Source: Dehalococcoidia bacterium (lineage in GTDB: Bacteria > Chloroflexota > Dehalococcoidia > Lucifugimonadales > UBA3495). From it: a stretch of 64,000 nucleotides of DNA. Location of the stretch: NCBI GenBank assembly GCA_963692995.1, contig OY843611.1:1525994-1589993 (forward strand), in the 5' to 3' direction. Of this stretch, positions 6,312 through 38,825 are shown in pieces. The translations under genes and the position numbers were made by a program. Each line of letters opens with the position of its first letter. Position 1 is the first letter of the stretch. The notes under the pieces were generated by a model, which saw nothing but the letters and a program-made list of their open reading frames with translations, did no database searches and was not told where the DNA came from.

Positions 6312-6689
6312 TCACACCCGGCAGTGGCCGTCGCAACGGCCCAGCCAATTGCTGATGCGCATCCGATTGCGGGCGAAGCTGCGGTAAAAAGCGTCAAAGA
6401 CGGGACGGGCCGGCCACCAGGCCGTCCAGCCAATCAGCCAGCCTATGCCGGCCTGCCGATAGCCCTCGCGCAAGGTGCCCATTCCAACGGTGATGCTGCC
6501 GTCGGGTCGGATGCCGTACAGGGCGGACTGCACCTGTTCGTGGGTAAAGCCCAGGGCGGCAGCATCGAAATCGGGGGCGGATATGTCCACCGGCTCAATG
6601 GCGTCGGGACGGCGGCGGTACAGGTTCATCACTTCGCGGCTGCACATTGGACAGGCTCCGTCGTACAGCATCCGGTAGCGGTCGCTCAT
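6312..6689 (-). CDS. Thiol-disulfide oxidoreductase DCC family protein (DUF393)
   Basis: Start at MSDRYRMLYDGACPMCSREV (YDGxCxxC motif), GGAGG-like SD upstream of ATG 6689; upstream part of ORF 6312..6947 looks non-coding. Confidence 0.7.
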   Translation of the reverse strand: MSDRYRMLYDGACPMCSREVMNLYRRRPDAIEPVDISAPDFDAAALGFTHEQVQSALYGIRPDGSITVGMGTLREGYRQAGIGWLIGWTAWWPARPVFDAFYRSFARNRMRISNWLGRCDGHCRV

Positions 6690-7113
6690 TCTCCGACCTC
6701 CACTCGCAGACCGATCCGAACCGGCAACGTCAGTCATCTGCCGGCGTAAGCACGGCTGTGTCGGCGACCTGCTGGCGGCCCCACCGGCGGTTCCGTAGTA
6801 AATCGAAATCTCGCCGCCGATGAGAATGCTGGGGTGATAGGGGTACGGTTGCCATTGGTCATAGTGCTTCTCCCCGCAGTGGGTGAAAACGGCAGCAGCG
6901 TGGATGGCATTGTAGCGCAAGCGAGCCGAGGCCGGCGACCGACGCAATGACGATCTGTTGCGAGAAGGAAATTCCCAGGCGGATTGCGGATATGCTCACC
7001 GGCCCGTCGGAAACTCCGCTTCCCACAATCTCCCCAGCTCAGGTACATATTGCCCGGTGCGAATGCCATCGATGTACACGTCAAAGTATGCGCGTATGAT
7101 GGGGTGGGCGCCC

Positions 7114-34958: not shown

Positions 34959-35348
34959 TCAATCAGGTATTATTACCGTTGCGGTCAACAGGTCGATTAG
35001 CAACAGAATGAACAGCTCTAATAAGATGACGCAGAACCCTAGAAAAACATAGCGTGTCCCCGCACGCTTTGAAGTTCCATCACGGCTGAGATCCGCTGGA
35101 GTAGCGAATATAGTTTTGCCACCGATAACCACCAGTCGCAGGTAAACGGTGAGCGCTATTGCGATGATTACAAATTTGGCTAATTGCAGGTTCCGTATCA
35201 ATGGCTTTTCTGATGGGTACGTAGGTACATCTGACGAAATGTCAATATTGGCGATTTCGCTGGCAAAGAATGCGGCGGCAAATACGGCAGTGGCGATGGT
35301 TATAATGCCCAAACAGATTTGATTCCAGTGACGCTCTTCTTCATCCAT
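34959..35348 (-). CDS. Hypothetical small membrane protein (3-4 TM), AT-rich
   Basis: 129-aa ORF ending 4 nt before mobA; hydrophobic segments; hand-counted GC of four 60-nt lines is 42-53%, against about 72% in mobA. Confidence 0.45.
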   Translation of the reverse strand: MDEEERHWNQICLGIITIATAVFAAAFFASEIANIDISSDVPTYPSEKPLIRNLQLAKFVIIAIALTVYLRLVVIGGKTIFATPADLSRDGTSKRAGTRYVFLGFCVILLELFILLLIDLLTATVIIPD

Positions 35349-35382
35349 AGTACCATCCCCTCAGTACACCCCATCGGCTATC

Positions 35383-35757
35383 TTATTTCCGGCTATGCCG
35401 CCAAGCGTCGGTCATCATCCATATGCCGGGGACGAACATGACGAGAAGTCCGATGGTTATGAGCATGGCGGGATGACGGGCATTCGTCTCCACTGCGCTC
35501 ACCATTCCAAATACGAGGAAAGGCGATCCTGCTAATATGCCTAGCGCCCATGTCAATATTATCCACTGTATGTCGCGACGCCAAACCGAAAATAGTCTGT
35601 TAAGACGTTGACGTCCGTATCCATTAGGGGTTCCGCCGGCAGGAAACCTTCCGGATATTTCGTTACGCGTCGGTTCGCTTGCCATTTCCCGCCTCTTGGC
35701 GCCGTTTTGCAGCCCTTGCACCAAGTTTATCACAGACGACCGTTCATCATTTGCCAC
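35383..35757 (-). CDS. Hypothetical small membrane protein (2-3 TM)
   Basis: 124-aa ORF, basic N-terminus then WIILTWALGILAGSPFLVFGMV and LITIGLLVMFVPGIWMM segments; no recognisable motif. Confidence 0.4.
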   Translation of the reverse strand: MANDERSSVINLVQGLQNGAKRREMASEPTRNEISGRFPAGGTPNGYGRQRLNRLFSVWRRDIQWIILTWALGILAGSPFLVFGMVSAVETNARHPAMLITIGLLVMFVPGIWMMTDAWRHSRK

Positions 35758-36935: not shown

Positions 36936-37126
36936 CCCGGCATGGCGATGGTGTATAATTAGCCGCCGTTCCGACCGCCCGGAGGGAGGCCGTTATGGCC
37001 CGCCTGCACCAGCACGATACTGACCTTGCCGATACAGCCGGCCATGCGCCGGCCTCAACCGCCCGGCAGTTGGCATTAACCCTTGACGGCCAATCGGATT
37101 GCGCCGGAGCTTGGGAAGACACGGCA

Positions 37127-38239
37127 ATGCCCAGCCCCGCCGTCGAAAACCCCGATTATCTAACGCGGCAGTTGCTTACCTACATCGGCAACAAGCGCGC
37201 TTTGCTGGGTTATATAGGCGATGCCGTACACCGGGTCAAGCAGAGACTGGGCAAAGACCGATTGCGGGCGCTGGACGCTTTCAGTGGTTCCGGAGTAGTA
37301 TCCCGTTTCCTGAAAGCCCACTCCTCCTTGCTCATCAGCAATGACATTGAGGATTACGCCGCCGTTATCAATCGCTGCTACTTGCGCAACAGGAGTACGG
37401 TTGATTATGACCGGATATCGGGGATAGTGGCCGACTTGAACGACCGAGTTGACCACGAGACCTTTCCCAAAGGGTTTATTGAGGAACTCTATGCTCCCCA
37501 AGACGAAAGCAGCATCACCTCGACCGACCGGGTTTTCTATACCGTCAGCAATGCCCGCCGTCTGGACAATTATCGTCGGCTGATCGACGACACGCCGGCG
37601 GACACCCGCGATATGTTACTTGCGTCGCTGCTCAATAAGGCGTCGGTTCACGCTAACAATGCTGGCGTGTTCAAAGGATTCTACAAGAACCGCCACACCG
37701 GAATCGGACAATATGGCGGTACGTCATCCGATGCCCTGCGGCGTATCAAAGGCAGAATTGATCTGGAAGCGCCGATACTGAGCCGCTTCGAATGTGAGTC
37801 CCAAATATTCCAGGAAGATGCCAACCAACTTGCGAAGCGAATCGGCGGCTTCGATTTGGCCTATATCGATCCCCCGTACAACCAGCATCCCTACGGATCC
37901 AACTACTTTATGCTTAACCTGCTGCTGCATTATCAGCGCCCGGACCACATCAGCCGGGTGTCGGGCATACCAACGAACTGGCGGCGCTCCGGATACAACG
38001 TGCGGGCGAAATCGCTGCCGTTGCTACAGCAGCTGCTTGCGACGCTGGACGCCCGGTTTCTATTAGTGTCCTTCAATAACGAGGGTTTCATAAAGCCGGA
38101 GGCAACGCGGGCAATGCTAGGAGACATCGGTTCCGTGGAGGTTATGGAAACGCGTTACAATACCTACCGCGGCAGTCGAAATCTCCGTGGCCGCTCGATA
38201 CACGTAACCGAGCAACTTTTCCTCGTTGAAAAGAAGTGA
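37127..38239 (+). CDS. N6-adenine DNA methyltransferase (motif I before DPPY; Dam/D12-like order)
   Basis: LLTYIGNKRALL, LDAFSGSGVVS (FxGxG), IDPPYNQHPYGSNY (motif IV); start at internal ATG 37127 of ORF 36995..38239. Confidence 0.8.
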   Translation: MPSPAVENPDYLTRQLLTYIGNKRALLGYIGDAVHRVKQRLGKDRLRALDAFSGSGVVSRFLKAHSSLLISNDIEDYAAVINRCYLRNRSTVDYDRISGIVADLNDRVDHETFPKGFIEELYAPQDESSITSTDRVFYTVSNARRLDNYRRLIDDTPADTRDMLLASLLNKASVHANNAGVFKGFYKNRHTGIGQYGGTSSDALRRIKGRIDLEAPILSRFECESQIFQEDANQLAKRIGGFDLAYIDPPYNQHPYGSNYFMLNLLLHYQRPDHISRVSGIPTNWRRSGYNVRAKSLPLLQQLLATLDARFLLVSFNNEGFIKPEATRAMLGDIGSVEVMETRYNTYRGSRNLRGRSIHVTEQLFLVEKK

Positions 38240-38246
38240 TGATACC

Positions 38247-38825
38247 ATGGCGCGCAGTGAGCAACTCCGGGGCCAACGCGGCGAAATCGTCAGGGAACTT
38301 CGGGGCGTCTATCCCGACGTTGATTTCAACTATCATTTTGATTCCAGCAAAATAAGTCCAGACGGCGGCTTTCTCTGCATCCGTGGTCGGAGTGGTGACC
38401 AGTTGACCTATCCGATTATGATTTCGGAAGTCAAGAACCAGGGAACTAACGACAGAAGGGCTAGCGAGGGTTTGGCAAGGCAAGCACGTGGCACTGCTAT
38501 TGAGCGTCTTGGCAAAAACCTCATCGGCTTGCGGACAGCTCTTATGCGGGAAAGTATCTTCCCGTTTGTTTGCTTCGGCTATGGGTGCGATTTCTAAGCG
38601 ATTTCCTCAATCTTAGACCGCGTTTCAACGATGGCGATGTTCGGCGAGCTGAACAAAACCTACCTGCACAACCTAGAGGACGGCAAATTCAACCGGGGCA
38701 GTTTTTATTTTCGAGAGGAACCTTGGACTGTGCCCGAAATGAGCGCAGTGATGAAGGACATAGCGGAGCGTTCGGTGCAGTATTACTTCTCGAAGTACCG
38801 TGAAGAGCGCTTTCGGCTACCGTAG
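38247..38825 (+). pseudogene. EcoRI-family type II restriction endonuclease with an in-frame TAA at 38595-38597
   Basis: ORFs 38226..38597 and 38631..38825 are in the same frame. ISPDGG...ISEVKNQG (PD..ExK) and GTAIERLGKN match my recollection of EcoRI IKPDGG...AEAKHQG and GNAIERSHKN. ATG lies 7 nt after the methylase stop. Confidence 0.7.

Follow-up and report, generated by a model that had tools for sequence, protein, structure and literature searches.

We report that a 64,000-nucleotide (nt) stretch of the genome of a Dehalococcoidia bacterium (contig OY843611.1; hereafter the window) carries a methylase gene followed by a damaged gene for an EcoRI-family endonuclease, and that this pair is, with a probability of about 0.8, a horizontally acquired type II restriction-modification (R-M) module whose nuclease is being lost and whose methylase is retained. 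The nuclease gene (R) is interrupted by an in-frame TAA and also carries an in-frame deletion of 44 codons and a Thr in place of an invariant Asn; the deletion and the Thr are common to two sister strains in which R is open, and the methylase gene (M) is intact. Coordinates are window positions, on the + strand unless stated, and the pair is laid out as follows.

36995-38239, + strand: intact gene (414 amino acids, aa) for a D12-class (alpha-type) N6-adenine DNA methyltransferase (PF02086; deposited call P0121)
37280-37294, + strand: methylase motif I, FSGSG (FxGxG, S-adenosylmethionine binding), read from the sequence
37868-37879, + strand: methylase motif IV, DPPY (catalytic), read from the sequence
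38240-38246, + strand: 7-nt spacer of a co-directional operon, M then R; the same 7 nt are present in the intact pairs L007 and L009
38247-38825, + strand: EcoRI-family type II restriction endonuclease pseudogene (PF02963), 192 codons including the internal stop
38279-38280, + strand: junction (Arg11/Gly12 of the window product) of an in-frame deletion of 132 base pairs (bp; 44 codons), from the alignment with 113 full-length relatives
38358-38363 and 38427-38435, + strand: nuclease catalytic P38-D39 and E61-V-K63, retained; the D, E and K columns are invariant
38418-38420, + strand: codon 58, ATG (Met); Leu in 112 of 113 relatives, CTG in both sister strains, hence private to the window
38493-38495, + strand: codon 83, ACT (Thr), in GTAIER; Asn in 113 of 113 relatives, equivalent to EcoRI Asn141
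38595-38597, + strand: in-frame TAA, from GAA (Glu) by G to T at 38595, in the window's genome only
38598-38825, + strand: untranslated C-terminal third of the nuclease gene, with family homology kept; it includes Arg125 (38619-38621), equivalent to EcoRI Arg200

The open reading frame (ORF) of the methylase ends with TGA (38237-38239), the nuclease ATG is at 38247 and the nuclease frame closes with TAG (38823-38825). The two ORF pieces (38226/38247-38597 and 38631-38825) lie in one frame with the TAA at 38595-38597 as the sole interruption, and the motifs ISPDGG, ISEVKNQG, GTAIERLGKN and FPFVCFGYGCDF are found in that frame; the stop, the same-frame pieces, the 7-nt spacing and the motifs were all as described in an earlier note made from the sequence without database searches. 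The deposited assembly, a contig of 3,293,860 bp recorded in NCBI and ENA, annotates the nuclease as two gene calls of 116 aa and 64 aa, and the stop therefore belongs to the source record.

Membership of this lineage in the EcoRI family is well supported by sequence comparison, as is the homology of the downstream 64-aa part to the family C-terminus; both had been proposed before, and the Pfam match, the PDB sequence search, the profile comparison and the fold search agree on the relationship. The N-terminal piece alone matches PF02963 (EcoRI) with 28.6 bits and the read-through product with 35.1 bits (Pfam cut-off 22), and the read-through product matches EcoRI chains in the PDB with E=1.6e-8 (phmmer) and has 2,351 homologs in a large protein collection, nearly all labelled PF02963 (best E=1e-124). 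Since the N-terminal piece exceeds the Pfam threshold, and given the PDB E-value and the number of homologs, the resemblance to EcoRI is not due to chance. A profile built from 113 subfamily members likewise matches EcoRI chains (E=9e-16). The fold comparison was done on the full-length relative P0003 (83% identical to the window product), not on the window product; its AlphaFold2 model has a mean predicted local distance difference test score (pLDDT) of 70.7 and a predicted template modelling (TM) score of 0.72, and in a Foldseek search of the PDB with this model EcoRI structures were the sole significant matches (E=5e-14, TM 0.71).

In a comparison of the subfamily with EcoRI using hhalign (probability 98.6) the subfamily lacks EcoRI residues ~176-191, i.e., the hairpin arm after GSNF. 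The subfamily segment SSILDRV pairs with EcoRI SGILNRL, the same pairing as in the earlier note, and the family Arg therefore aligns with EcoRI Arg200; the C-terminal W..EM..M.DI segment aligns with EcoRI as well. In this comparison the first 200 EcoRI residues agree with the output of the PDB search, and the sequence past residue 200 is what we take to be that of EcoRI. The catalytic triad D39, E61 and K63 is present in the window product and aligned with the PDGG and AEAK segments of EcoRI.

Compared with the 113 full-length relatives, the window product has a gap of 44 residues (residues 12-55 of the full-length enzyme) that is seen in none of them (0/113). The size of about 190 aa, previously taken to indicate a naturally compact homolog, is thus the product of a deletion in a subfamily of ~237 aa. 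In the P0003 model the deleted segment comprises a 27-residue helix (residues 15-41, pLDDT 86-95) and the first core beta-strand (residues 45-50), and it corresponds to approximately residues 19-63 of EcoRI, described as alpha1, alpha2 and beta1 (PMC11755562). The DNA junction of the deletion was compared with L007, L009 and L023, and no convincing microhomology was found there.

A second lesion is the Thr in GTAIER, at a column where Asn is invariant (113/113 relatives). In EcoRI, Asn141, Ala142 and Arg145 belong to the extended chain through which the AATT core is read (PMC4081073; for the Asn141 segment see also Fritz et al. 1998, by the title cited in PMC11755562), and the window product does not keep this extended-chain segment, G-N-A-I-E-R (EcoRI 140-145), unchanged. 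Because all 113 relatives have Asn and the Thr is confined to a lineage that already has the deletion, the alignment makes it look like decay rather than a functional variant, and not like the change of specificity that had been suggested. Of 121 columns with at least 90% conservation, the window product departs from the family at 6; the mean for the relatives is 1.9, and only 2 of the 113 reach 6.

The third lesion is the stop, and together with the 44-codon deletion the TAA at 38595-38597 leaves no uninterrupted full-length coding sequence. Here 99 of the 114 other aligned sequences have Glu and both sister strains have GAA as the codon, and the ancestral codon was therefore GAA (Glu) and not TTA (Leu). 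In the gapped hhalign alignment this Glu pairs with EcoRI Glu192 and not with Leu175, and the proposal of a TTA to TAA change at a Leu codon is not supported.

The order of these events could be read from two sister strains, the Logan contig L001 (98.99% DNA identity to the window over 3.6 kb) and L090, a 3.15-Mb genome from ENA, both of which are syntenic with the window. Both have the deletion, the Thr and four other departures at conserved columns, with the ORF open, and since the deletion and the Asn to Thr change are common to the window, L001 and L090 they predate the split of the three strains. At 38595 and 38418 both sisters carry GAA and CTG, respectively, so that the TAA and the Leu58 to Met change (L58M) are private to the window; L090 in turn has a substitution of its own at an invariant Ile (I104V). 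The earlier view of an enzyme knocked out by a single TAA does not hold, because the older deletion and the Asn to Thr change are also present in the two sisters with an open ORF.

Six genes were compared between the window and L090 (HDAC, M, R, TrmI, DUF2203 and GGT) and were found to be identical in length and free of frameshifts. In R we counted 0 synonymous, 3 nonsynonymous and 1 nonsense change, as against 52 synonymous and 25 nonsynonymous changes in HDAC, M, TrmI, DUF2203 and GGT together (one-sided Fisher p ~0.014, calculated by hand on these small numbers). Between the window and L001, R has 0 synonymous and 2 nonsynonymous changes (the stop included) and M has 6 synonymous and 1 nonsynonymous. 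Within the lineage the nuclease gene is under relaxed constraint, and the methylase gene is under purifying selection.

The methylase is intact and, as the earlier note had it, solitary in practice, on the grounds of its length, its conserved columns and its ratio of nonsynonymous to synonymous substitution rates (dN/dS). It matches PF02086 with 69.2 bits (cut-off 22), with motif I preceding motif IV, and has 100% identity with the deposited call P0121 (414 aa); its relatives are 409-416 aa. Its start is most likely the ATG at 36995, and position 37127, from which it had been read before, would be an internal Met. Within FSGSG (residues 96-100) F96, S97, G98 and G100 are invariant in 120 homologs and S99 is at least 90% conserved, and DPPY (D292-P-P-Y295) is invariant in the same 120. 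At 3 of 209 columns conserved to at least 90% the methylase departs, each time conservatively, from a family that itself departs at 4.55 on average, and dN/dS is 0.11-0.22 overall and 0.11-0.17 among syntenic genomes with a synonymous divergence (dS) of 0.7-1.4. A search of the methylase against the PDB gave no match, i.e., no related solved structure was found.

The history of the locus extends to other relatives, in which the gene order HDAC-like deacetylase, M, TrmI and DUF2203 is kept (L023, L003, L004 and L005/L006). In L023, a Dehalococcoidia metagenome-assembled genome (MAG), the locus reads HDAC, M, R, TrmI, DUF2203, and the nuclease is full-length and open with 234 aa. L005 and L006 have M and only the first 35 codons of R; L004 has M and the first 27, with the R start codon now ATA; and L003 has M and ~23 R codons, frameshifted. 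Because the stubs include codons that are deleted in the window, the ancestor had a full R at this locus; the breakpoints of the losses differ. In L003 the nuclease stub and TrmI are separated by a 236-aa ORF without Pfam match (6391-7101, - strand); a similarity between the end of this ORF and the 3' end of TrmI points to a local rearrangement or to a partial duplication.

A paralogous methylase, M2 (P0132; 73-79% identical), is found at another locus (L002 6001-7375; ENA ERZ21742358 contig_1), where it is flanked by short-chain dehydrogenase and amidohydrolase genes and followed by a stub in which R residues 1-4 are joined to residues 201-236. P0132 is also listed for the 3.29-Mb contig of the window itself (the stub was seen in L002), so that two orphan methylases of this family appear to be present in the window's genome.

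The subfamily to which the nuclease belongs is ~237 aa long and was found in >338 GTDB species of many phyla. Close homologs, 65-84% identical to the window's R, are present in Dehalococcoidia, Gemmatimonadota, Planctomycetota, Poribacteria, Proteobacteria and many other groups, and the best match in a scan of GTDB representatives is a Dehalococcoidia MAG with 84% identity. In all of the 80 genome loci examined the nuclease is positioned directly downstream of a D12-class methylase (374-416 aa), and R is full-length in 78 of them. Among the intact pairs the 7-nt spacing was checked in L007 and L009 only, and these two occupy unrelated genomic contexts. An intact M-R pair is also present on a 6-kb plasmid, pCP157_17, of Paracoccus marcusii CP157 (NZ_CP065909.1; L091 1106-2976), whose nuclease is 57.5% identical to P0003. 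The M-R module is mobile and horizontally spread. A horizontal origin had already been suspected from base composition, and this stands: the GC content of the pair is 0.50-0.585, i.e., 8-12 GC points below that of the flanks (0.60-0.66), and the homologs are scattered across many groups.

Damaged subfamily copies were seen in two other genomes. On a Capsulimonadaceae chromosome (L089 3828-4537) a frameshifted nuclease with Leu at the invariant Pro of FPFV lies beside a methylase, and in a Roseiflexus MAG (L046 2119-2769) the nuclease beside the methylase is without an intact N-terminus; an assembly error of the MAG type is possible for both. A scan of M, R and P0002 against NCBIfam returned no family. 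A literature search for a characterised subfamily member gave just background on EcoRI, RsrI, MunI, MluCI and LraI, together with a Paracoccus denitrificans R-M paper that was irrelevant, and no determined specificity for the subfamily was found in it.

The following course of events would explain these data. A D12-class N6-methyladenine methylase gene and, 7 nt downstream, a gene for a compact ~237-aa EcoRI-family nuclease would have been horizontally acquired. The common ancestor of the three strains then lost 44 codons in-frame, which encoded the long N-terminal helix together with the first beta-strand of the core, and in the same ancestor the invariant Asn of GNAIER was replaced by Thr. 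Finally, on the branch of the window's strain alone, Glu117 (GAA) became TAA through a G to T change, and Leu58 became Met. Judging from conservation and from the structure model, we infer that the deletion and the Asn to Thr change had put an end to cleavage, or severely impaired it, by the time the stop appeared. The methylase, given its conserved sequence, presumably still methylates adenine in its target and now acts as an orphan methylase.

Because the family retains the GNAIER segment and the Arg200 equivalent, the target site probably contains AATT, and by analogy with EcoRI the natural guess would be GAATTC or a relative. Avoidance was scored for every palindrome of 4 or 6 bp, in 592 kb from 83 host loci and in the window, and no site was supported. 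In the 83 host loci GAATTC has an observed/expected ratio of 1.05 and ranks 63 of 64, i.e., it is not avoided, and AATT, CAATTG, AAATTT and TAATTA are unremarkable.

Several observations weigh against a module in decay. AlphaFold2 modelling and conservation suggest inactivity but cannot prove that the deleted, Thr-carrying protein was inactive; two strains keep the 192-codon ORF open; just one assembly shows the TAA; the within-lineage substitution counts are small; and the dN/dS of R against distant full-length relatives is 0.06, at saturated dS. The low ratio against distant relatives implies that the nuclease was constrained for most of its history, and that its decay is recent in relative terms. 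The methylase also fits imperfectly, with M 3% divergent in DNA between the window and L090 (2749-3993; dS 0.077, 22 synonymous and 16 nonsynonymous changes), while its flanks differ by 0.4-1.2% (dS 0.018-0.041) and silent changes are entirely lacking in the adjacent R. Variant sites occur over the whole length of M. Allele exchange or weak codon selection could be behind this extra divergence, and as M is more divergent than its flanks an exchange of alleles may have taken place instead of simple vertical descent. Gene conversion from M2 was considered as a source and rejected, since the variant sites show no consistent match to M2.

One alternative is that the 192-aa form is a working, naturally compact EcoRI-like enzyme, perhaps with a specificity altered through the Thr, and that the TAA is the sole, recent inactivating event. 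The open ORF of the sister strains, the retained catalytic D, E and K and Arg200 equivalent, and the low dN/dS of R against distant relatives would all suit such an enzyme. However, no other short form is present among the 113 aligned relatives and R is full-length at 78 of the 80 loci, the model places a helix of high confidence and a core strand in the missing segment, and the position of the Thr is invariably Asn; moreover, all four changes within the lineage are non-silent and one hits an invariant Ile. We therefore consider a working compact enzyme improbable.

Equally little weight is given to the possibility that the TAA is a base-calling or assembly error and that the window's strain truly has GAA, with the ORF open as in its sisters. 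The restriction of the stop to one assembly, with GAA in both sisters, is what such an error would produce. Modified motifs can produce systematic long-read errors, and a G at 38595 would form the palindrome TTCGAA (ATTTCGAAGC in the sister strains), which the G to T change destroys (38590-38600). On the other side, the six genes compared with L090 are equal in length and without frameshifts, and local assembly quality is therefore good, and the same strain has a second private non-silent change in R (L58M), consistent with real decay. Even if the TAA were an error, the deletion and the Asn to Thr change would remain and a normal enzyme would not be restored. It is very unlikely that the remnant was retained because it took on another function, for example in regulation or in binding DNA without cleaving it, or that the stop is read through: the ORF has persisted after the deletion in three strains, save for the stop in one, but the lineage is too young for this to count, constraint is not seen (0 silent and 4 non-silent changes), no recoding signal is evident, although no search was aimed at one, and relatives with the same locus have deleted nearly the whole gene.

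Returning to decay of the nuclease with retention of the methylase, we raise tentatively, and as somewhat less likely true than not, that the methylase has been domesticated in this Dehalococcoidia clade: purifying selection would maintain it at the fixed HDAC-M-TrmI locus, its partner nuclease would have been destroyed independently at least four times, with different breakpoints, and a second, paralogous orphan copy appears to be present in the same genome. If so, there would be selection for methylation itself, either as immunity against re-invasion by an abundant R-M family or in an epigenetic role, and the locus would be a natural time series of R-M decay. Irrespective of domestication, the obvious stop codon is not the first lesion here, which calls for caution when a gene is described as "one mutation from functional", and across the related genomes the stages of decay can be followed with unusual clarity at one locus, from the intact pair via the deletion and the deletion with stop to the stub. 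The module represents a widespread compact EcoRI-like subfamily, and the intact copy on the plasmid of a cultured Paracoccus can be tested for its recognition sequence.

Upstream of the pair we noted a perfect TATAAT hexamer (36954-36959), within the 59 nt that separate the HDAC-like gene from the methylase start codon (ATG, 36995). This hexamer may be the -10 element of a methylase promoter; the consensus scan skipped it, as it has no -35 match, and the counts in the promoter and terminator scan equal the level in shuffled sequence. Just upstream of the HDAC-like gene there is a low-GC patch (34959-35757, - strand; 0.475-0.535 vs ~0.62) that carries two small ORFs of 129 and 124 aa, both membrane-protein-like; the syntenic relatives L004 and L005 lack this patch and have GidB immediately before the HDAC-like gene.

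Among known systems the nuclease is closest to EcoRI and RsrI (type IIP, PD-ExK, G^AATTC, PF02963), with which the subfamily has in common the fold and the PD...E-x-K catalytic residues as well as the GNAIER extended-chain segment, the Arg aligned with Arg200 and the FP(F/Y)V strand. It differs in that identity to EcoRI in the structural alignment is 21-23%, in length (~237 aa vs 277 aa for EcoRI) and in its partner methylase, which is D12/alpha-class, unlike M.EcoRI, a gamma-type enzyme, and M.RsrI, a beta-type enzyme. The copy in the window is a pseudogene, and it also differs from its own subfamily, in which 78 of 80 copies are full-length and open, by the stop, the deletion and the Thr in place of Asn.

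In other respects the locus is a case of ordinary, already described decay of an R-M system into an orphan methylase, with an intact M beside a disrupted R in the window, an intact pair in L023, and M with a stub in other relatives. Orphan methylases arising by degradation of the nuclease have been described, and 24% of them adjoin degraded nucleases (Seshasayee et al. 2012, PMC3424554). Like the window locus, these orphans have an intact methylase beside a degraded nuclease and kept after its loss, and they too have an intact pair at the orthologous locus of a relative. Unlike them, the locus reported here presents several stages at one position, from the full-length nuclease through the deletion with point changes and the stop to a stub of 23-35 codons, and it is accompanied by a second, paralogous orphan in the same genome.

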